This document shows, piece after piece, positions 1 through 7,812 of a stretch of 7,812 nt of DNA. The translations under genes were made by a program, and so were the position numbers. This DNA comes from a virus. Taxonomy: Duplodnaviria; Heunggongvirae; Uroviricota; Caudoviricetes. A model generated the notes under the pieces. That model was not told the origin of the DNA. It was given only the letters and a program-made list of their open reading frames with translations, and did no database searches. The DNA lies in IMG/VR virus record IMGVR_UViG_2711768009_000002; one strand, written 5' to 3'. Every line of letters starts with the position of its first letter. Position 1 is the stretch's first letter.

Positions 1-108
1 CTCCAATGACTAGTCTAAAAACTAGTATTAAGACTATCACTTATTTAAGTGATACTGGTTGTCTGGAGATTCAGGGGGCCAGTCTAGTAAGGCTGCGAGA
101 GGTGAATA

Positions 109-480
109 ATGTCGCCATCATTACGCAAGGCTGTTGCAGTTGCTATTGGTGGCGGGGCTGTTGCTATAGCATCTGTGTTAATCACTGGCCCAGGTGGTAA
201 CGATGGTCTGGAAGGTGTCAGCTACATACTATACAAAGATATCATTGGTGTATGGACTGTATGTCACGGACACACCGGAAAAGACATCATGCCTGGTAAA
301 ACGTATACCGAAGCAGAATGCAAAGCTCTCCTGAATAAAGACCTTGCCACTGTCGCCAGACAAATTAACCCGTACATCAAAGTCGATATACCGGAAACAA
401 CGCGCGGCGCTCTTTACTCGTTCGTTTACAACGTGGGCGCTGGCAATTTCAGAACATCGACGCTTCTTCGCAAAATAAAC
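109..480 (+). CDS. SAR (signal-anchor-release) endolysin, T4-lysozyme-like phage lysozyme; 3' end lost in the N-run
   Basis: ATG at 109 with GAGAGGTG RBS at 97-104. Translation [51 protein letters not shown]... has a Gly/Ala-rich weakly hydrophobic N-terminal SAR segment followed by a lysozyme core with E-x8-D-x5-T spacing ([17 protein letters not shown]). From memory it is near-identical to phage 21 R and E. coli prophage SAR lysozymes. The ORF runs into Ns at 481, so the true end is unseen (about 165 aa expected). Confidence 0.88.
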
Positions 481-784
481 CNNNNNNNNNNNNNNNNNNN
501 NNNNNNNNNNNNNNNNNNNNNNNNNNNNNNNNNNNNNNNNNNNNNNNNNNNNNNNNNNNNNNNNNNNNNNNNNNNNNNNNNNNNNNNNNNNNNNNNNNNN
601 NNNNNNNNNNNNNNNNNNNNNNNNNNNNNNNNNNNNNNNNNNNNNNNNNNNNNNNNNNNNNNNNNNNNNNNNNNNNNNNNNNNNNNNNNNNNNNNNNNNN
701 NNNNNNNNNNNNNNNNNNNNNNNNNNNNNNNNNNNNNNNNNNNNNNNNNNNNNNNNNNNNNNNNNNNNNNNNNNNNNNNNNNNN
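481..784. other. Run of 304 N (assembly gap or masked sequence)
   Basis: Directly visible as n characters. It hides the endolysin 3' end and the 5' ends of Rz and Rz1; its true length is unknown. Confidence 0.97.
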
Positions 785-967
785 AAATGCCCTGTGCCAT
801 CCTCAGCCGAAACCTCCAGCGCCTCCGGCATGGGCAATGATGCCACCGTCGAACTCTCTCCAGTTGCTGGACGAAACGTTCTCGGTATCCGGGACGGAAT
901 CATCAGCGACCAGACAGCATTGAGAATGCTTCAGGAGTACATCAGGATCCAATGCCTTGGGGGGTAG
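785..967 (+). CDS. Rz: i-spanin Rz, C-terminal fragment (5' end in gap)
   Basis: Frame open from the gap edge to TAG 965-967. Translation ...GIISDQTALRMLQEYIRIQCLGG has a Cys near the C-terminus, as recalled for lambda Rz. It sits directly downstream of the endolysin and contains an embedded +1-frame ORF, which is the classic Rz/Rz1 architecture. Confidence 0.6.
   Translation, partial: KCPVPSSAETSSASGMGNDATVELSPVAGRNVLGIRDGIISDQTALRMLQEYIRIQCLGG
786..923 (+). CDS. Rz1: o-spanin Rz1 lipoprotein, C-terminal fragment, embedded in the +1 frame of Rz
   Basis: +1 frame relative to Rz, open from the gap edge to TGA 921-923. Translation ...HPQPKPPAPPAWAMMPPSNSLQLLDE... is proline-rich and resembles the PPPPPAW core of lambda Rz1 (recalled, not searched). 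Confidence 0.6.
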   Translation, partial: NALCHPQPKPPAPPAWAMMPPSNSLQLLDETFSVSGTESSATRQH

Positions 968-1055
968 CGGTAATTTTACTCATTATCCTTCAAATCAGAT
1001 TCTGTTGTCAGAGGAATGGGGGAAGCTGGATTCGCAAGAGCTTTTTATGGGCAGT

Positions 1056-1565
1056 TTAGCTAAAAAAAGGCAACACGAAGCTAAAACTACCAACATAAAG
1101 TGCTGACCAGCTAGCAGCTGAAATCAGACTCACTGTATACACTTTCACTGGATGAAGTTGCAACATTCCTGCCACCAAAGGAGCAATATAACGCAGCACG
1201 GCGATAAAGCGCGAAGTGAAAAGTATTGACACAGAGTTATTTTGCAACTGAAGGCGAACCCGTTCTATTGTATTGGAACGGCTTGATATTATACATGCAA
1301 GTTGAGGGATATGCCCAATTATTATACCAAGATGGTAATTAACGATAGTACCGCACCATGCGCCACTCATGACCGTGATTCCAGCTTCCCATGGTGAAAG
1401 AGTCGTCTTGCTGACTGTAATTACAGTGGCCATCATAATTGATGCTGGTGGCAATATCGCCGAAATGAGTAAAGTGGATTTTGTGAACGCTATTATAAAA
1501 AGAAGCCCCCATAGGCGATATGGATGAAGTACAAAATAGTTCATCAAAGCATTTATCCACTCCAT
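1056..1565 (-). CDS. Small multi-pass inner-membrane protein, DedA/VTT-domain family (YqaA-like); prophage moron
   Basis: Minus-strand ORF with stop TAA (revcomp of 1056-1058) and ATG at 1565-1563 (the ORF track starts it 1 codon earlier at TTG 1568). A GAAGGAAAG RBS lies 8 nt upstream (revcomp of about 1570-1578). The protein is very hydrophobic (4-5 predicted TM helices) and contains FTSRFIAVLRYIAPLVAGM, matching the DedA-family RF[IL]xx[IV]R..xP.VAG motif, plus an upstream STLLISAILPPAS segment recalling the YqaA ATLLPGNSE region. The gene is visibly AT-richer than the flanking phage genes. Confidence 0.5.
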   Translation of the reverse strand: MEWINALMNYFVLHPYRLWGLLFIIAFTKSTLLISAILPPASIMMATVITVSKTTLSPWEAGITVMSGAWCGTIVNYHLGIIIGHIPQLACIISSRSNTIERVRLQLQNNSVSILFTSRFIAVLRYIAPLVAGMLQLHPVKVYTVSLISAASWSALYVGSFSFVLPFFS

Positions 1566-1762
1566 CAATGTCTTTCCTTCTGTGAATTTTTCTTTGCTAT
1601 TTAACCGTGATACGACTTAATTTAGGCTTAAACACCTTACATTTACAAGGTACTCCTGTGGGGGGCCCTGCCACGGAGCGTCGCAGGAGTGAGTGATGAG
1701 GAAGAATTAAAGCAACCTATTGTGACAGGCAGCGATAACAGTAAATCACAGGAAGCATAATC

Positions 1763-2527
1763 ATGGCAAAACCGGACTGGGAGGCCATCGAATCGGCATA
1801 CCGGGCCGGAGTCCTTAGCCTCCGTGATATAGGCGAGAAATACGGCGTTACAGAAGGGGCTATCAGGAAGAGGGCCAAAAAGCTTGGTTGGGCACGCAGT
1901 GGCGGTACGCAGGTTTGCAAAAATGGTACGCAAAAAAGGAAAGTGCGTACCAGCAGAAAGCCTGCCATTACTGGCCTTACACAAAAAAGTACGCAACTAA
2001 AAACAGAATCTACACCGGATACGAAACCGATACGCGGAATGCGTACCGATCCCCCGACTAACCCATTCCAACCCGGTAACCAGCAGGCATTAAAACACGG
2101 TGGTTATGCCCGTCGCCTTCTGCTCAAAGATGAGGTGATAGAGGACGCTAAAGCGTTGACGCTCGAGGACGAATTATTTCGCCTTCGTGCTAACAACCTT
2201 GTCGCTGCAGAGAATATTGGTCGGTGGTTGGTGTCGCTGGAAGATGCTAATGGGGACCAGGAAAGGAAGATGCTGATTGAAAATATCAGCGCCGCCGAGA
2301 AAGCAATGATGCGCAATACAGTTCGTATTGAGTCCATCGTTGGCACGCTTGCGACGGTAGGAAAAATATTTGCTGATACAGCCTACCGCAAGGCCGCCAC
2401 TGATAAGGTGTCTCTGGAGGCTGATCGTCTTCGCCGTGATGCAGGTATTGATGATGGCAATGGAGAGCGTGACCTCAATGACTTCTACTCTGACATCCAA
2501 ACCGACGCTGAATCCGGCTTTACGTAG
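1763..2527 (+). CDS. Terminase small subunit (N-terminal HTH DNA-binding domain)
   Basis: ATG 1763 with AGGAAG RBS at 1749-1754; stop TAG 2525-2527. The N-terminus DWEAIESAYRAGVLSLRDIGEKYGVTEGAIRKRAKKLGW is a typical terminase-small-subunit HTH, followed by a basic linker and a coiled-coil-like C-terminal region. It lies immediately upstream of, and overlaps, the terminase large subunit gene. Confidence 0.6.
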   Translation: MAKPDWEAIESAYRAGVLSLRDIGEKYGVTEGAIRKRAKKLGWARSGGTQVCKNGTQKRKVRTSRKPAITGLTQKSTQLKTESTPDTKPIRGMRTDPPTNPFQPGNQQALKHGGYARRLLLKDEVIEDAKALTLEDELFRLRANNLVAAENIGRWLVSLEDANGDQERKMLIENISAAEKAMMRNTVRIESIVGTLATVGKIFADTAYRKAATDKVSLEADRLRRDAGIDDGNGERDLNDFYSDIQTDAESGFT

Positions 2528-3881
2528 TTTCTGGACTATGCGGGCACGTAACAAAGTGCTTTATGGTGGTCGGTCATCGTCAAAATCATGGGATGCCGCT
2601 GGCATTGCCATATTTCTGTCGAATAAATACACCCTGCGTTTTTGTTGTGCCCGTCAGATCCAGAATAAAATCGAAGAGTCGGTGTATACCCTGCTCAAAA
2701 TTCAGATAGACAGGTTTGGTCTGCGGCACCGTTTCCGTATTCTGAACAACAAAATCATTAACCGGGTTACTGGCTCGGAATTTGTTTTTTATGGATTATG
2801 GCGCAACATCGAAGAAATTAAGTCACTGGAGGGGATCGATGTGTTGTGGCTGGAAGAAGCCCACGCACTGACGGAATACCAGTGGAAAATTCTGGAGCCA
2901 ACGATCCGTAAAGAGGGTTCGGAATGCTGGTTCATATTCAACCCCGGACTTGTTACTGATTTCGTCTGGCGCAACTTCGTTGTTGATCCGCCCGAAGGCA
3001 CTCTCATCCGCAAAATTAACTATGACGAAAATCCGTTTCTGTCTGACACCATGCTTAAGGTTATCGACGCGGCGCGACGCCGTGATCCGGATGGTTTTAA
3101 ACATGTGTATGAGGGCGTTCCGGAGTCTGATGATGATGCGGCAATCATCAAACTGTCTTGGATAGAAGCCGCAGTGGATGCGCACAAAACGTTAAATTTC
3201 GAACCCAGTGGAAGAAAGCGTATTGGCTTTGACGTGGCTGACAGTGGTACAGATAAGTGCGCTAACGTTTACCGTCACGGATCCGTTGTTTTCTGGGCCG
3301 ACGAATGGAAGGCCAAAGAAGATGAATTACTGAAGAGCTGCCAGCGTACTTATCAGGCGGCGCTGGAGCGTGAAGCAGATATTGTTTACGACTCTATCGG
3401 TGTTGGTGCGTCTGCCGGTGCTAAATTCTCTGAAATTAACGCTGACCGGAAGAGCGAGAACGCATACGCGCGACGTGTGAATTACCAGAGGTTTAACGCC
3501 GGTGCTGGTGTGCATGAGCCAGATGACGAGTACAACGGCATCCCCAACAAAGACTTTTTCGCAAATCTTAAGGCTCAGGCATGGTGGCTGGTGGCTGACC
3601 GTTTCAGAAATACGTTTAACGCCATTAACAACGGAGAACAGTATCCTGTGGATGAGCTGATCAGCATAGATTCTCGTTGTCCGTTGCTTGAAAAGCTGAA
3701 ACTGGAACTGACAACACCTCATCGTGATTTCGACCGTAACGGACGTGTGATGGTCGAAAGTAAAAAAGACCTCGCAAAACGCGAGATACCGTCACCAAAC
3801 GTTGCTGATGCATTCATTATGGCCTTCGCGCCAATCGATACATCGCTGGATATCTGGGAACAGCTGGGGAGACAGGCCTGA
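2478..3881 (+). CDS. Terminase large subunit, PBSX/Terminase_3-like (ATPase plus nuclease)
   Basis: Long ORF in frame 0 ending TGA 3879-3881. P-loop-like YGGRSSSKS and Walker B-like IDVLWLEEAH are present, with an N-terminal LNPALRSFW...ARNKVLYGG region typical of this family as I recall it. The start is uncertain: ATG 2478 is chosen (GGAG at 2462-2465), with alternatives 2451, 2460 and 2538. The ORF-track start at 2370 would overlap terS by 158 nt and is not favoured. Confidence 0.85.
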   Translation: MTSTLTSKPTLNPALRSFWTMRARNKVLYGGRSSSKSWDAAGIAIFLSNKYTLRFCCARQIQNKIEESVYTLLKIQIDRFGLRHRFRILNNKIINRVTGSEFVFYGLWRNIEEIKSLEGIDVLWLEEAHALTEYQWKILEPTIRKEGSECWFIFNPGLVTDFVWRNFVVDPPEGTLIRKINYDENPFLSDTMLKVIDAARRRDPDGFKHVYEGVPESDDDAAIIKLSWIEAAVDAHKTLNFEPSGRKRIGFDVADSGTDKCANVYRHGSVVFWADEWKAKEDELLKSCQRTYQAALEREADIVYDSIGVGASAGAKFSEINADRKSENAYARRVNYQRFNAGAGVHEPDDEYNGIPNKDFFANLKAQAWWLVADRFRNTFNAINNGEQYPVDELISIDSRCPLLEKLKLELTTPHRDFDRNGRVMVESKKDLAKREIPSPNVADAFIMAFAPIDTSLDIWEQLGRQA

Positions 3882-5347
3882 TGGCACGAAACAAACAAGC
3901 CCTGCGGCGAACTGTGCAGGCCACAGCTGATGGTTATGAGAATTTTATTGCCCGCGTAGGGATGCAGACACCTAACCAGCACTCAGCATCCACCTACCGG
4001 GCTAATTTCACCAGTCGTAACCGCATGCTGGTGGAATGGTCCTATCGTTCATCCTAGATCATCGGCGAAGCAGTCGATGCTATCCCGGATGATATGACCC
4101 GCAAAGGCATTCGCATCACTTCGGAAATTGATGCAAAAGATCGTGGCATTCTCGAATCACAACTGGATGAGTTGCAAATCTGGGATGCGCTGAATGACGT
4201 GCTGAAATGGTCGCGCCTCTACGGCGGCGCGGTGGGTTTCATCATGATTGAGGGGTAGGCACCAATGACCCCGCTGCGACCCGAAACCATCGGTAAGGGC
4301 AAGTTTAAGGGGATTCTCCCGCTCGACCGCTGGATGGTCGACCCGGCACTGACCCGCCGCATTAAAGATATGGGGCCGGACCTGGGTAAACCTGAGTTTT
4401 ACGATGTGGTGACCACAGCAACGGGAATTCCTGCCTGGCGCATTCATCACAGTCGCCTGATTCGCTTTGATGGCGTCACGTTGCCATTTCAGCAGAAGAT
4501 GACCGAGAACGAATGGGGAATGTCGGTTGTAGAGCGTATCTGGGATCGTCTTACCGCGTTCGACAGCGCTACTGTCGGCGCGGCGCAGCTGGTCTACAAG
4601 GCGCATTTGCGTACCTACAGCGTGGAGAAGCTACGCGAGCTTATCGCACTTGGTGGTCCTGCGTATGAAGCGTTGCTGAAGAATATCGACCTGATTCGAC
4701 AGTTCCAGAGTAATGAAGGCATGACGCTCATGGACTCGCGGGATAAGTTTGAAACCCATCAGTACAGCTTCAGTGGTCTGGATGACATCCTTTCGCAGTT
4801 TGTAGAACAGATTAGTGGCGCTGTTGGTATCCCACTGGTGCGGTTGTTCGGACAGTCCCCGAAAGGATTTTCTACCGGTGATGCAGACCTTGCCAACTAT
4901 TACGATCGCATCAGTTCGTTGCAGGAGAGGCGTTTACGTCTTCCGGTGCGGCGGATACTGGACATCATGCATCGTTCGGAACTTGGCAAGCCGCTGCCGG
5001 ACGATTTCACGTTTGAGTTTAACCCGCTCTGGCAAATGTCTGATGTCGATCGCTCAACGGTGGCGTTAAACACCACCAACGCAATCAGTACGGCGCTGGG
5101 TGATGGTCTGATGACACTGAAAGCCGCTATGACTGATTTGCGAGAAAATTCTGACGTAACCGGCATCGGGGCATCCATTACCGACGAGGACATCGAGAAT
5201 GCCGAAGATGAAGCGCCGCCCGGCATCGGCGAACCTGATGACGAACCGCAGGAGCCGTCAGGCGGAAATCCGGTATCGAACCAGCCTACGCAGGATAGCG
5301 AGGGCGGTCGGAGACATCGTAAATGGTCGCTACGATGGTTCAAATGA
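3881..5347 (+). pseudogene. Portal protein gene interrupted by two in-frame TAG (amber) codons at 4055-4057 and 4256-4258
   Basis: ATG 3881 overlaps the terL stop (cTGATGg). A single reading frame runs 3881-5347 as 58 codons, TAG, 66 codons, TAG, 362 codons, then TGA 5345-5347, giving 488 codon positions, a normal portal size. The position between terL and the MuF-like gene is the canonical portal slot. Translation verified by hand: ...LVEWSYRSS*IIGEAVDAIPDDMTRKG...GFIMIEG*APMTPLRPETIGKGKF... Confidence 0.7.
4265..5347 (+). CDS. Portal protein, largest uninterrupted segment (360 codons from the first ATG after the second TAG); what an ORF caller would report
   Basis: ORF-track entry 4265..5347 in the same frame as 3881. 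There is no convincing RBS before ATG 4265 (upstream is ...attgaggggtaggcaccaATG), so I regard it as the distal part of the interrupted portal gene rather than an independent start. Confidence 0.45.
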   Translation: MTPLRPETIGKGKFKGILPLDRWMVDPALTRRIKDMGPDLGKPEFYDVVTTATGIPAWRIHHSRLIRFDGVTLPFQQKMTENEWGMSVVERIWDRLTAFDSATVGAAQLVYKAHLRTYSVEKLRELIALGGPAYEALLKNIDLIRQFQSNEGMTLMDSRDKFETHQYSFSGLDDILSQFVEQISGAVGIPLVRLFGQSPKGFSTGDADLANYYDRISSLQERRLRLPVRRILDIMHRSELGKPLPDDFTFEFNPLWQMSDVDRSTVALNTTNAISTALGDGLMTLKAAMTDLRENSDVTGIGASITDEDIENAEDEAPPGIGEPDDEPQEPSGGNPVSNQPTQDSEGGRRHRKWSLRWFK

Positions 5348-5981
5348 CAGTATCACGGAAATTATTGCGGCGCTGGAGCGTTACAGTGAAATCATCACCC
5401 CCTGGGCGACAAAGGTCGCGGAAAACTTTACTGCGGACCTAACCCGGCAGAACGAGAAAGTTTGGCGGCAACACAGCAAGAACATCAGTCGCGAGCTCCG
5501 CAATCTTGTGGAAAGCGCTCCTGTGGGCCAGGTGATGCAATCCATCATCGCCGAACAGGTCAAGTACATCAAATCTCTGCCTCTCGAGGCCGCAGACAGG
5601 GTGTACGACATCCAGAACAAAGCGATAGAGGCTGTTGTCACCGGTGGTCGGGCGGAGCAGTTTGCTAAAGAGATTGCATCTACCGGCGATGTTGCTAAGT
5701 CTAGGGCCGATCTGATTGCCCGAACGGAACTGGGAAGAGCAACGGGCGCGCTGGATATGGCCCGAGCGATAGCTATTGGCTCGGATGGTTATATTTGGCG
5801 TACAGCCGATGATGGCGATGTCCGAGATTCCCACGATCACATGAAAGGTAAATTCGTCCGCTGGGATTCACCTCCAACTTTGGACGGCATGACCGGCCAC
5901 GCGGGCGAGCTGCCAAACTGCCGCTGCTATAAAGAGATCGTGTTTGTTCGCGTTCCATTCGCAATGAAAAGGGCAGCATAA
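5199..5981 (+). CDS. Head morphogenesis protein, SPP1 gp7 / phage Mu F family
   Basis: The C-terminal half has the family hallmarks LIARTELGRA, DDGDVRDSHDHMKG and ELPNCRCY (ARTE, D-x-R-x-S/R-H, NCRC). Stop TAA 5979-5981. Start ATG 5199 has a GAGGA RBS at 5186-5190; alternatives are 5208 and 5238. No in-frame GTG/TTG start exists nearer the portal stop, so the 5' end overlaps the portal 3' end by at least 110 nt. Confidence 0.8.
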   Translation: MPKMKRRPASANLMTNRRSRQAEIRYRTSLRRIARAVGDIVNGRYDGSNDSITEIIAALERYSEIITPWATKVAENFTADLTRQNEKVWRQHSKNISRELRNLVESAPVGQVMQSIIAEQVKYIKSLPLEAADRVYDIQNKAIEAVVTGGRAEQFAKEIASTGDVAKSRADLIARTELGRATGALDMARAIAIGSDGYIWRTADDGDVRDSHDHMKGKFVRWDSPPTLDGMTGHAGELPNCRCYKEIVFVRVPFAMKRAA

Positions 5982-5984
5982 CCC

Positions 5985-7205
5985 ATGAAATACTTTTTTG
6001 AGACCAGGCTCGGGGAAACCCGATACCGCCTGGCTGACGGCTCGTTGCTGTGCAAAGACGTGCCGATAGGACGAACAGGTAAGCAGCTCTATGGTGCTGA
6101 TGACCTGCCAAAACTGAAACCCGATAAGTTCGGTGAAATAGTCGTCACGCGTTCTCCTGAGCAGGTATTCCATCCGGCCACGCTTGCCTCATTCGAAGGG
6201 ATGAGCATCACGATCCTGCATCCTGAAGATGAAAACGGGAATGTGCGGCTGGTAAATCCCGAGAACTGGAAAGAGCTTGCTGTCGGGCACCTCCAGAATG
6301 TCCGGCGCGGGACGGGTGAGCAGTCTGATTTGATGCTGGCTGACCTTATCGTCAAAGACGAAAGCGCCATTCAGCTTATCGAAGATGGCCTGCGCGAAGT
6401 GTCGTGCGGCTATGACGCGGAGTACGAGCAGACCGAGCCAGGTAAAGCCGAGCAGGTCGATATTACCGGAAACCATGTGGCTCTTGTCCCTAAAGGCAGA
6501 GCCGGAAATCGTTGTGCAATTGGAGACAGAGACACAATGGCAAATCAAAAGAAAAACTGGTGGAACCGCATGCGTGCGGCCATCAAGACAGGAGATGCCG
6601 ACACCATGAACGAACTGGTGGAGTCGGCTCCCGCATCGGTTACAGGAGATGAGGGGGATTTGCCGCAGGGCGTTAATCTCAACATCAACCTGTCCCCGCA
6701 GCAACCACTACCGGACAAAGCACCAGAGATGGGCGGAGATCCAACCGGCGACAGTGATGATGACCTCAAAACATTACTGAAAGCCCTGCTGGCTAAGCTG
6801 GAAAGAAATGCCACGGGCGATAACGATAATAAGCCTGACGATAATCCGACCGGTGACGGCGAGGACGATGAAGAGGAAACCACGATTACTGGTGACTCAG
6901 CCTGGCGTGCCGAAGTTATCGTTCCGGGTATCGATCTGAGCCGTAAGATGAAACCGACCGCGTTCAAACGCGAGGTTCTGGCTTCTGCTGACAAAACGCT
7001 GGTTCGCCAGATAGTCGGTGATGCGGATATCCGCAAATTACCGAAACAATCGGTCGACATGGCGTTTAATGCCGTGTCTGAGGTTGCCAAAGGGCGAAAC
7101 ACCCGCGCCACCACCGGCGATGCACAGCGCCTAAACATGGGCATGACCAGTATCGCTTCCCTGAACAAACAAAACGCTGAATTCTGGGCAAACCGTAAAG
7201 GGTAA
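5985..7205 (+). CDS. Head scaffolding-like protein (406 aa; N-terminal globular domain plus acidic low-complexity linker and C-terminal helical region), possibly DUF2213-type
   Basis: ATG 5985 lies 3 nt after the MuF stop; stop TAA 7203-7205. The assignment rests on position between the MuF-like and small head protein genes and on the acidic D/E/G/T-rich central region (GDPTGDSDDD...DNPTGDGEDDEEE) typical of scaffold-like proteins. No catalytic motif was recognised with confidence. Confidence 0.5.
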   Translation: MKYFFETRLGETRYRLADGSLLCKDVPIGRTGKQLYGADDLPKLKPDKFGEIVVTRSPEQVFHPATLASFEGMSITILHPEDENGNVRLVNPENWKELAVGHLQNVRRGTGEQSDLMLADLIVKDESAIQLIEDGLREVSCGYDAEYEQTEPGKAEQVDITGNHVALVPKGRAGNRCAIGDRDTMANQKKNWWNRMRAAIKTGDADTMNELVESAPASVTGDEGDLPQGVNLNINLSPQQPLPDKAPEMGGDPTGDSDDDLKTLLKALLAKLERNATGDNDNKPDDNPTGDGEDDEEETTITGDSAWRAEVIVPGIDLSRKMKPTAFKREVLASADKTLVRQIVGDADIRKLPKQSVDMAFNAVSEVAKGRNTRATTGDAQRLNMGMTSIASLNKQNAEFWANRKG

Positions 7206-7208
7206 AAA

Positions 7209-7715
7209 ATGAATAATGTATTTCTGTACCGGATGCCTGTTGGCATTGCCGGGGCTGTCTCTCGCCCGCAGGACTTAACCGTCGAACCGGTGGTCCTTAA
7301 ATCCGATAACGCCTTCGCTGCCTATGGCCTGGCTGGTAAATACGATGATGACGGTTTTTTCGTGCCGCTGGCAGATGGTGATACCGCAGACAAGGTGAAG
7401 GGGATCTACGTGCGCCCTTATCCGACCACGTCGCAGCCGGACATGGTTCGCCAGGTGGGAACAGGCAAGAACTTCCCGGGCGACGCCATGAAGCGTGGCT
7501 ACGTGACCGTTAATCTCGGTTCTGATTTTGATGCCAGCACTATCAAAAAAGGCGATCCGGTATACGTTGTCGTCTCCACTGATGAATCCATCAAAGTGCC
7601 GCTGGGTGGATTCATGTCCACGTCAGTCAGTGGCAAAAACGTGGTGCTGACCAACGCTGAATTCACAGGTGCCGGTGATGCTGACGGCAATGCAGAAATT
7701 TCCTGGAAGATTTAA
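7209..7715 (+). CDS. Small head protein, probable decoration/cement-type protein preceding the major capsid gene
   Basis: ATG 7209 lies 3 nt after the scaffold stop; stop TAA 7713-7715. The 168-aa Gly/Val/Asp-rich, beta-rich-looking sequence sits in the slot that head decoration proteins occupy in SPP1-like head modules. Assignment is by position and composition only. Confidence 0.4.
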   Translation: MNNVFLYRMPVGIAGAVSRPQDLTVEPVVLKSDNAFAAYGLAGKYDDDGFFVPLADGDTADKVKGIYVRPYPTTSQPDMVRQVGTGKNFPGDAMKRGYVTVNLGSDFDASTIKKGDPVYVVVSTDESIKVPLGGFMSTSVSGKNVVLTNAEFTGAGDADGNAEISWKI

Positions 7716-7730
7716 GGAACAGACGAATGA

Positions 7731-7812
7731 GGTGATGCTGCCAACTTACTGATTTAGTGTATGATGGTGTTTTTGAGGTGCTCCAGTGGCTTCTGTTTCT
7801 ATCAGCTGTCCC
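7731..7812 (+). mobile_element. IS1 insertion sequence, left end (terminal inverted repeat plus start of insA); continues beyond the window
   Basis: GGTGATGCTGCCAACTTACTGATTTAGTGTATGATGGTGTTTTTGAGGTGCTCCAGTGGCTTCTGTTTCTATCAGCTGTCCC matches the canonical IS1 left terminus as I recall it, including the GTG-initiated insA reading frame (M)ASVSISCP. Confidence 0.85.
7786..7812 (+). CDS. insA: IS1 InsA, first 9 codons (partial; continues beyond window)
   Basis: GTG 7786 followed by GCT TCT GTT TCT ATC AGC TGT CCC, giving (M)ASVSISCP, the known InsA N-terminus, inside the IS1 left end. Confidence 0.75.

Follow-up and report, generated by a model that had tools for sequence, protein, structure and literature searches.

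The portal gene of the stretch of DNA analysed here (the window, 7,812 nucleotides in total) is, almost certainly, a fixed nonsense pseudogene in a decayed prophage of Shigella sonnei. The window itself belongs to a decayed myovirus-type prophage of the S. sonnei chromosome, of which it is a unique stretch with IS2 and IS1 at its ends. Its portal gene, which has no uninterrupted full-length coding sequence, is a pseudogene of the PF06381 portal family and not a working member of it. The two in-frame stops of this gene are both TAG, each is one base away from the codon found in relatives, TGG (Trp59) and CAG (Gln126), and both are derived.

The features of the window are listed below, one per line, together with the evidence on which each assignment is based. 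Positions are those of the window unless a locus is named; L001 is an intact prophage related to that of the window, and L006 is one of the S. sonnei loci.

1-86, minus strand: end of an IS2 that interrupts the holin gene of the prophage; the unique contig is bounded here on the left, with the match to L001 ceasing left of base 87.
87-109, plus strand: the ~23 bases at the 3' end of the class II holin gene, which remain after the IS2 insertion (window 87 = L001 2101; L001 holin CDS 1908-2123).
109-481, plus strand: 5' three quarters of the lysozyme gene rrrD, whose 3' end lies within the N run (Pfam Phage_lysozyme, 6.3e-30; rrrD in the L001 annotation).
482-784, no strand: N run of 303 masked positions; the identical chromosomes have 409 bases there, with the end of rrrD and the start of the Rz-like lysis gene.
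785-967, plus strand: 3' part of the Rz-like lysis gene (= L006 6521-6703, within the PF03245 Phage_lysis gene at 6233-6703).
1056-1568, minus strand: DedA/VTT-family membrane protein gene, probably a moron (L001 annotation; Pfam VTT_dom; weak NCBIfam DedA match).
1763-2527, plus strand: gene for 254 aa ending in TAG, placed in the small-terminase slot by its position; profile searches gave no family match.
2478-3881, plus strand: terminase large subunit gene (terL), intact, 467 aa (Pfam Terminase_3, 4.5e-38; L001 annotation).
3881-4057, plus strand: portal fragment 1, codons 1-58 and then TAG (Trp59 to amber, G>A at 4056).
4058-4258, plus strand: portal fragment 2, codons 60-125 and then TAG (Gln126 to amber, C>T at 4256); gene callers begin a 54-aa ORF at ATG 4094.
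4259-5347, plus strand: portal fragment 3, codons 127-488 and then TGA, called as a 360-aa ORF from ATG 4265 (C>T at 4803, Ala308 to Val).
5238-5981, plus strand: Mu F-like head morphogenesis gene, intact, sharing 110 bases with the 3' end of the portal gene but read in a different frame (Pfam Phage_Mu_F, 1.5e-18; L001 annotation).
5985-7205, plus strand: DUF2213 head gene, intact (Pfam DUF2213, 2.8e-42).
7209-7715, plus strand: capsid cement / minor capsid protein gene, intact (Pfam XM1_gp53_minor_capsid, 4.4e-30; Phage_cement, 2.8e-21).
7727-7730, plus strand: ATGA, the four bases with which the major capsid gene (DUF2184) begins, the remainder being lost (the L001 DUF2184 CDS start at 9847 = window 7727; homology stops at 7730).
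7731-7812, plus strand: left end of IS1; divergence from L001 starts at 7731, and the junction takes the place of every head, tail and tail-fibre gene downstream.

The left-hand element was identified through the genes that adjoin it in the identical S. sonnei chromosomes (locus L003, 4397-5625), which match the NCBIfam models "IS2 transposase TnpB" with 728 bits and "IS2 repressor TnpA" with 276 bits; in the S. sonnei loci, the ORF of the holin continues into this IS2. At the right-hand end, the first-pass annotation of this DNA had claimed an IS1 insertion downstream of the portal, and this is what we found: the prophage sequence ends at 7730/7731, and in the identical chromosomes insA (PF03811, PF12759) and insB (PF03400) come directly after, followed by a chromosomal lactonase gene (pgl by position). 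An ORF of 243 aa called at 109-840 was discarded as an artefact of reading through the Ns.

Translation of positions 3881-5347 gave one continuous frame of 488 codons plus a terminal TGA. Two stops alone interrupt it, both of them TAG, at 4055-4057 (codon 59) and 4256-4258 (codon 126); as the first-pass annotation had described it, there is no frameshift and no stop of another type. Its placement between terL and the Mu F-like gene was also borne out, and it lies in a head module: the TGA of terL overlaps the portal ATG at 3881 (ATGA), and the Mu F, DUF2213 and cement genes come next. When X is placed at the two stops, the read-through product matches Pfam PF06381 Phage_portal_3 (DUF1073) with an E-value of 5.8e-104 and 348.1 bits (cut-off 33.8) over residues 55-402, so that both stops fall inside the match, while the intact ancestor-like portal protein reaches 255.1 bits with TIGR01555 of NCBIfam, for which the cut-off is 196.25. 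Solved structures exist for portals of this PF06381/TIGR01555 (HI1409) type, those of Pam3 (8hds) and E217 gp19 (8fvh), to which the portal sequence aligns with E = 2.2e-37 (residues 15-413) and 1.1e-14, respectively. The read-through product matches this family over the whole of its core; however, the window copy cannot yield the full chain. An SD-like GAGGGG is present 9 bases upstream of ATG 4265.

The comparison with relatives indicates which codons preceded the stops. The prophage of E. coli FDAARGOS_944, which is 99.9% identical, has an intact portal CDS of 488 aa, in which the two codons read TGG and CAG. Residues 59, 126, and 308 are W, Q, and A in six relatives, down to 85% nucleotide identity, and W59 and Q126 align to a W and a Q of the solved Pam3 portal (8hds, E = 2e-37); Trp59 and Gln126 are invariant in every relative examined. 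It had been predicted that Trp or Gln at the stop positions would be the sign of a single-base change from TGG or CAG to TAG, and the closest relatives show precisely these two residues. Homologues that begin only at the Met equivalent to 4265, which the first-pass annotation had named as refuting its reading, did not appear: all homologues have 487-488 aa and align from residue 1.

The in-frame stops themselves are not conserved in relatives. Exact searches for the 61-mers containing the TAGs found neither of them in 5,426 complete E. coli genomes (0/5,426), nor is either TAG present in 11 metagenome contigs. In 13 further loci, S. flexneri SFBU1023 among them, the portal is free of internal stops and the two codons are TGG and CAG throughout (0/13). 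An exact 39-mer containing the first TAG had no match among the GTDB species representatives, so the window is not from one of those genomes; S. sonnei was recognised by exact look-up of the proteins. A degenerate pattern that covers all four allele combinations, applied to metagenomes and species representatives, returned no one-TAG intermediate from which the two events could be ordered, 13 of its 13 matches being TGG with CAG.

The closest of these relatives is the intact sister prophage of E. coli FDAARGOS_944, FDAARGOS_943, and VL40, which is sited between ybhA and ipaHb. The identity of 99.9% of the FDAARGOS_944 copy holds over window positions 87-481 and 785-7730, with the same order of lysis cassette, DedA, terminase, portal, Mu F, DUF2213, and cement genes. 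The induced phages vB_EcoM-606R2, -689R2, -611R5, and -683R1 have a head module that is ~94% identical to the window and an intact portal that is 98% identical. In the sister prophage and in the induced phages, an uninterrupted portal of 488 aa is followed by capsid, tail, and fibre genes, whereas in S. sonnei the portal is cut by two stops and the prophage breaks off at IS1.

Outside the N run, the window is 100% identical to six chromosome-scale records, among them HE616528.1 and CP019689, which correspond to S. sonnei 53G (lineage II) and S. sonnei 75/02 (lineage IIIc), respectively (PMC5447701); the S. sonnei chromosomes identical to the window thus represent lineages II and III. The two portal TAGs are present in 10 independently assembled chromosomes, six of which are base-identical to the window. 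In a public assembly collection, the portal fragment products are on record in 2,737 blocks (58 aa), 2,758 blocks (54 aa), and 2,576 blocks (360 aa). The allele is common to independent isolates and lineages, with lineages II and IIIc among the 10 chromosomes and each fragment in more than 2,500 blocks. As judged from these sequences, the double-TAG allele is fixed in S. sonnei lineages II and III, arose before their split, and is not a strain-specific lesion. The blocks with portal fragments are mostly contigs of 5-10 kb, as would be expected of a stretch flanked by IS copies.

Essential phage genes of the S. sonnei prophage are broken or absent. The holin gene is interrupted by IS2, and the major capsid gene gives way to IS1 after its first four bases. 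Where the genes for the major capsid, neck, tail, baseplate, and tail fibres would be, there are IS1 and genes of the chromosome. Beyond the IS1 junction on its right side, over at least 19 kb, the S. sonnei loci have no match to the prophage of the intact relative; in locus L032, no match to S. sonnei lies beyond position 29986. This remnant is unable to make phage. The explanation that the first-pass annotation had ranked first, a recent point inactivation of a defective prophage, is supported in its substance by the IS2 in the holin gene, the IS1 from the major capsid gene onward, and the stops one base away from TGG and CAG. The word "recent" does not hold in the sense of a strain-specific event, since the allele predates the split of lineages II and III.

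The sequence of events that we propose is as follows. Once the prophage was no longer maintained as a phage, its portal gene would have gained two independent G:C>A:T hits, TGG>TAG at Trp59 and CAG>TAG at Gln126, and would also have acquired one missense change, Ala308 to Val. With the genes for the major capsid, neck, tail, and tail fibres deleted, there would be no use for a portal. Translation from ATG 3881 is expected to stop after 58 residues, with weak restarts at ATG 4094 or ATG 4265 conceivable at most, and no functional portal would be produced. Translation of the C-terminal fragment of 360 aa may be possible.

Five derived changes were counted on the S. sonnei lineage, all of them G:C>A:T transitions. 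By type they are one synonymous, two missense, and two nonsense changes, too few for dN/dS. In addition to the three portal changes, they comprise a missense C>T at 230 in rrrD (Pro to Leu, polarised with L031) and a synonymous change at 1284 in the DedA/VTT gene (also polarised). This pattern would fit relaxed selection, n = 5 being far too few for testing. Compared with the intact ancestor, the portal frame has three substitutions and zero indels in 1,467 bases, and the frame has remained in phase because, with only three mutations, there was hardly any chance of an indel. The description of the frame as "kept in phase" is correct as to its being intact, but this carries no significance beyond chance. 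In the portal gene, G:C>A:T changes can create 49 nonsense changes, 28 of which (57%) are TAG; given two nonsense hits of this kind, the probability that both stops are amber is ~0.33. A frame that is open across two stops of the same type can mimic recoding or suppression, which calls for caution; the recoding-like look arises here because the gene has only three mutations and the G:C>A:T bias gives TAG more often than other stops.

It could be argued that the knock-out of the portal was favoured by selection and not by drift, expression of the remnant portal being costly or triggering a portal-sensing immune system. Avs-type sensors, which are portal-sensing abortive-infection systems, are one possible reason for leaky portal expression to be costly. 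Two of the five derived substitutions are nonsense, which is nominally above expectation (P ~0.02, calculated post hoc for a locus chosen for its two stops); three of the five fall in the portal, which makes up 20% of the compared length (P ~0.06, also post hoc); and the other genes of the window are all still intact. However, these statistics are weak, and the stop at codon 59 alone abolishes the protein, with the second stop and the missense change being invisible to selection. Moreover, the S. flexneri and FDAARGOS_944 copies of the same prophage have an intact portal, and the FDAARGOS copies decay elsewhere, with an IS2 in terL of FDAARGOS_943 and, in FDAARGOS_944, a frameshifted head-tail gene and truncated recE and tail-fibre genes. 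We consider selection a very unlikely cause of the knock-out, and there is just as little likelihood that the excess of hits (two nonsense and one missense of five) reflects selection in the S. sonnei ancestor against expression of the prophage portal. Clustering as proof of selection or of a single mutational burst was rejected, the P values of 0.02-0.06 being post hoc and the portal changes falling on both strands (G>A, C>T, C>T).

Two further explanations had been offered in the first-pass annotation, and neither is supported. According to one of them, the prophage is functional and behaves as an amber conditional-lethal phage, viable and making its portal only in an amber-suppressor host, which would suit two amber lesions in an otherwise intact frame. 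But there is no complete phage, every structural gene that would follow the cement gene on the right being deleted and the holin gene split by IS2; because the structural genes are missing, this explanation is refuted as far as phage production is concerned. The stops are absent from relatives, the hosts are natural clinical isolates of one clone and not laboratory suppressor strains, and the locus has no tRNA-CUA: a scan for it gave none in the window, in 21 kb of each of the S. sonnei loci L003 and L006, or in 13.5 kb of each of the intact relatives L001 and L002. Taken together, these observations make a suppressor-dependent phage exceedingly improbable.

The other explanation, that the portal is translated through both TAGs by programmed stop readthrough or by reassignment of TAG, could draw on the occurrence of two in-frame TAGs in a late structural gene, one of them at a Gln position, but its probability is negligible. 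The stops are absent from all relatives, and those with 98-99.9% identity carry a sense codon at each of the two positions; only one of these is Gln, the other being Trp; and TAG is the normal terminator of the gene at 1763-2527, whose length is the same as in relatives. In-frame TAGs are confined to the portal among the genes of the window, and terL, Mu F, DUF2213, and cement are free of in-frame stops of any kind. No suppressor tRNA was found in the locus, and the intact relative has four tRNAs, which read codons for Met/Ile(CAT), Arg, Thr, and Gly. Recoding of TAG to Gln was also considered and is ruled out by the Trp site, the TAG terminator at 2525-2527, and the sense codons of relatives. 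Classical amber (sus) mutants and TAG-recoded phages are similar to the window in having an in-frame TAG in a late gene; the window differs from them in that there is no complete phage, the locus has no suppressor tRNA, a TAG terminator is found next door, and the stops are absent from relatives. A sequencing or assembly error, with sense codons at both sites in the true genome, has nothing specific in its favour and is hardly worth considering, as ten chromosomes, each assembled independently, share these TAGs, six agree with the window base for base, and the fragment proteins are in more than 2,500 blocks.

The fixed pseudogene agrees well with what is known of Shigella gene decay, in which nonsense mutations, frameshifts, and the expansion of IS1 and IS2 create pseudogenes (Hawkey et al. 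2020, PMC7373316). Both IS1 and IS2 are among the IS types expanded in all Shigella species, and every Shigella reference genome has at least 199 pseudogenes (PMC7373316). The case described here is alike in its S. sonnei host, in its nonsense point mutations fixed across lineages, and in the cutting of the remnant by IS2 and IS1; it is unlike in that the gene is phage cargo and not a core metabolic gene, and otherwise in nothing of substance. The portal pseudogene of the window was not found singled out in the Shigella literature examined. The decay of Shigella genomes and of their prophages is well documented, and this fixed pseudogene, as one more instance of it, matters little in itself. 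On the practical side, the two nonsense SNPs and A308V, which occur neither in the 5,426 complete E. coli genomes searched nor in the copy of S. flexneri, could be markers specific to the S. sonnei clone.

The portal gene is a double-nonsense pseudogene, fixed at least across lineages II and III of Shigella sonnei, and it lies in a prophage remnant without capsid and tail genes. On translation, its frame, 3881-5347, gives 488 codons and a terminal TGA, with TAG at codon 59 (4055-4057) and at codon 126 (4256-4258) as the sole stops in between; the first-pass annotation, which described the frame as broken by just these two TAG codons, was true as stated. The read-through product, with X at both stops, matches Pfam PF06381 (Phage_portal_3, formerly DUF1073; 5.8e-104) over residues 55-402, so the portal homology is continuous across both stops.

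Features of the window and substitutions in the portal
1-86: end of an IS2 copy (left edge)
1056-1568, minus strand: DedA/VTT-family membrane protein gene, moron-like, between the lysis cassette and the terminase genes
1763-2527: 254-aa gene in the small-terminase position, overlapping terL by 50 bases
Directly 5' of the portal: large terminase gene (its TGA stop overlaps the ATG of the portal)
4056: G>A, TGG to TAG at Trp59
4256: C>T, CAG to TAG at Gln126
4803: C>T, GCA to GTA, Ala308Val
3' of the portal, in order: Mu F-like gene, DUF2213 gene, capsid cement gene
7731-7812: end of an IS1 copy (right edge)

The window has its closest annotated relative in E. coli FDAARGOS_944, a prophage that FDAARGOS_943 and VL40 also carry in near-identical form. 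Identity to the window is 99.9% over 87-481 and 785-7730, and the portal of this relative is an intact 488-aa DUF1073 CDS. Across the approximately 7.3 kb compared there are nine substitutions and no indels, and three of the nine are in the portal. Outgroup polarisation places the changes at 230, 1284, 4056, 4256 and 4803 on the lineage of the window, and those at 2221, 2759, 3769 and 7192 on the FDAARGOS_944 side. Six relatives, with nucleotide identities down to 85% and among them Salmonella phage SEN34 and Citrobacter phage Omnitron, all have Trp59, Gln126 and Ala308, and the first two of these residues align with Trp and Gln of the solved Pam3 portal (8hds). In the test proposed earlier, Trp or Gln at the stop sites would imply a single-base change from TGG or CAG, and exactly this outcome was obtained. 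Neither TAG-bearing 61-mer has an exact copy in 5,426 complete E. coli genomes, where every best match is a single mismatch away, and TGG and CAG, without an internal stop, are present in 11 metagenome contigs, S. flexneri SFBU1023 and E. coli ECMA0423. A portal allele with one TAG was not found among the relatives, metagenome contigs and genomes compared.

With three substitutions over its 1,467 bases and no indel, the portal keeps its frame open by default, and an open frame across two stops needs no explanation. All five changes derived on the lineage of the window are G:C>A:T transitions (one synonymous, two missense and two nonsense); they look like new, unselected mutations, and their direction is consistent with raw mutation bias. 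The four changes on the FDAARGOS_944 side are all from A:T (T>C, T>A, A>C, A>G) and may be recombination imports rather than new mutations. In the ancestral portal, 49 stops could be reached by G:C>A:T changes (28 TAG, 17 TGA and 4 TAA), and the probability that both are amber, given two such nonsense hits, is about 0.33. Nonsense changes represent 5.0% of G:C>A:T changes in all the coding sequence of the window; the probabilities of at least two nonsense changes in five (about 0.023) and of at least three of the five falling in the portal (about 0.058) are nominal, as the locus was chosen for having two stops, and we do not take them to show selection. That loss of the portal was favoured by selection, for which only these weak post hoc statistics speak, is highly improbable. 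Every Shigella reference genome has at least 199 pseudogenes (PMC7373316). The double-TAG portal is an ordinary feature, already explained.

Recoding or programmed readthrough of the TAG codons, one of the options initially considered, is contradicted by the sense codons that near-identical relatives have at both sites, by the presence of Trp, not Gln, at one of them, by the lack of in-frame TAG in the other genes, and by the neighbouring gene 1763-2527, which terminates with TAG. With point inactivation, ribosomes initiating at 3881 would stop at 4055, and translation restarting from ATG 4094, or from ATG 4265 with its GAGGGG 9 bases upstream, may yield short products or ones truncated at the N terminus, neither of which would act as a portal.

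The FDAARGOS_944 prophage extends roughly 40 kb, from an integrase gene adjoining ybhA to the ipaHb effector gene, and its neck, tail, baseplate and tail-fibre genes follow the cement gene as a complete set. In S. sonnei, the holin gene is split by IS2 (NCBIfam: IS2 TnpA 276 bits, TnpB 728 bits), and homology to the prophage ends at window position 7730, four bases into the major capsid gene. The IS1 reported earlier downstream of the portal module is indeed there, with its end at 7731-7812 and insA and insB next, followed by chromosomal lactonase and LysR-type regulator genes. By position, the lactonase gene is pgl, and the position of the remnant suggests that it occupies the same chromosomal site as the sister prophage, adjoining pgl. 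At least 19 kb of the FDAARGOS_944 prophage to the right of the IS1 junction has no match in the S. sonnei loci. The S. sonnei element is a remnant, not a phage; with sense codons in the relatives and the structural genes gone, the first-pass preference for point inactivation in a defective prophage was right. The absence of structural genes rules out phage production by an element viable only in an amber-suppressing host. A search for a tRNA with a CUA anticodon was negative across the window, 21 kb of two S. sonnei loci and 13.5 kb of each of two intact relatives. The sister copies decay elsewhere, FDAARGOS_943 by an IS2 in terL and FDAARGOS_944 by a frameshifted head-tail gene, a truncated recE and truncated tail-fibre genes. 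In the wider locus NZ_CP065613.1 (4280000-4329000), the intact sister prophage is flanked by ybhA and ipaHb, a T3SS effector gene, and includes four tRNA genes. FDAARGOS_944, deposited as E. coli, carries an ipaH gene; such genes are carried by Shigella and enteroinvasive E. coli.

In a public assembly collection, the 58-aa, 54-aa and 360-aa (C-terminal) portal fragments are present in 2,737, 2,758 and 2,576 blocks, respectively, mostly on contigs of 5-10 kb; sequencing error is excluded, as thousands of independent assemblies agree. Both TAG codons are present in all ten chromosome-scale records fetched, six of which match the window at every base apart from its N run. These six include HE616528.1 (S. 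sonnei 53G, lineage II) and CP019689 (S. sonnei 75/02, lineage IIIc) (PMC5447701). Further IS insertions upstream vary between lineages, whereas the two TAG codons are common to all. The portal mutations probably predate the split of lineages II and III, whose common ancestor has been dated to the late 17th century (PMC7373316). Given its edges in IS2 and IS1, and a near-identical contig of 7,919 bases also on record, the window looks like the unique stretch between two IS copies, as recovered by short-read assemblers.

Window positions 482-784 are 303 N, where otherwise identical S. sonnei chromosomes have 409 bases (6112-6520 of the chromosomal locus L006), so that coordinates to the right of the run are 106 bases short of the real sequence. 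A 243-aa ORF called at 109-840 is an artefact that reads through the Ns. The 409 bases comprise the end of the lysozyme gene rrrD and the start of an Rz-like lysis gene, and differ from FDAARGOS_944 at seven positions (1.7%, compared with nine, or 0.12%, in the other ~7.3 kb), six of which alter an amino acid of the lysozyme or Rz-like protein; a small patch of recombined sequence is one possibility.

The DedA/VTT cargo gene is rare among the 5,426 complete E. coli genomes (its 61-mer matches only 6), while the head module is common (382). The 254-aa gene has no Pfam or NCBIfam match. In vB_EcoM-606R2 and E. coli A34, the same portal is preceded by an annotated small terminase of another kind and by a longer TerL, which indicates that the packaging module is mosaic, with a breakpoint near 3792-3828. 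The first prophage tRNA (918-994 in the FDAARGOS_944 locus, 2320-2393 in L006) is tRNA-Met (anticodon CAT) according to ARAGORN and tRNA-Ile in RefSeq, the usual ambiguity of lysidine-modified tRNA-Ile2; it is the only one remaining in S. sonnei 53G, which has an IS3-family element in place of the other three. Some RefSeq annotations (hits in E. coli C and AS19-RrmA-) give the portal family the name "anti-CBASS protein Acb1 family protein", and most others use "DUF1073 domain-containing protein"; the former name is apparently an artefact of annotation, as the NCBIfam scan returned only TIGR01555 (HI1409 family) and the protein is clearly related to solved portals. With the extent that it is given in relatives, the Mu F-like head morphogenesis gene shares the final 110 bases of the portal (5238-5347) in a different frame, and its start differs between gene callers (247 or 152 aa).
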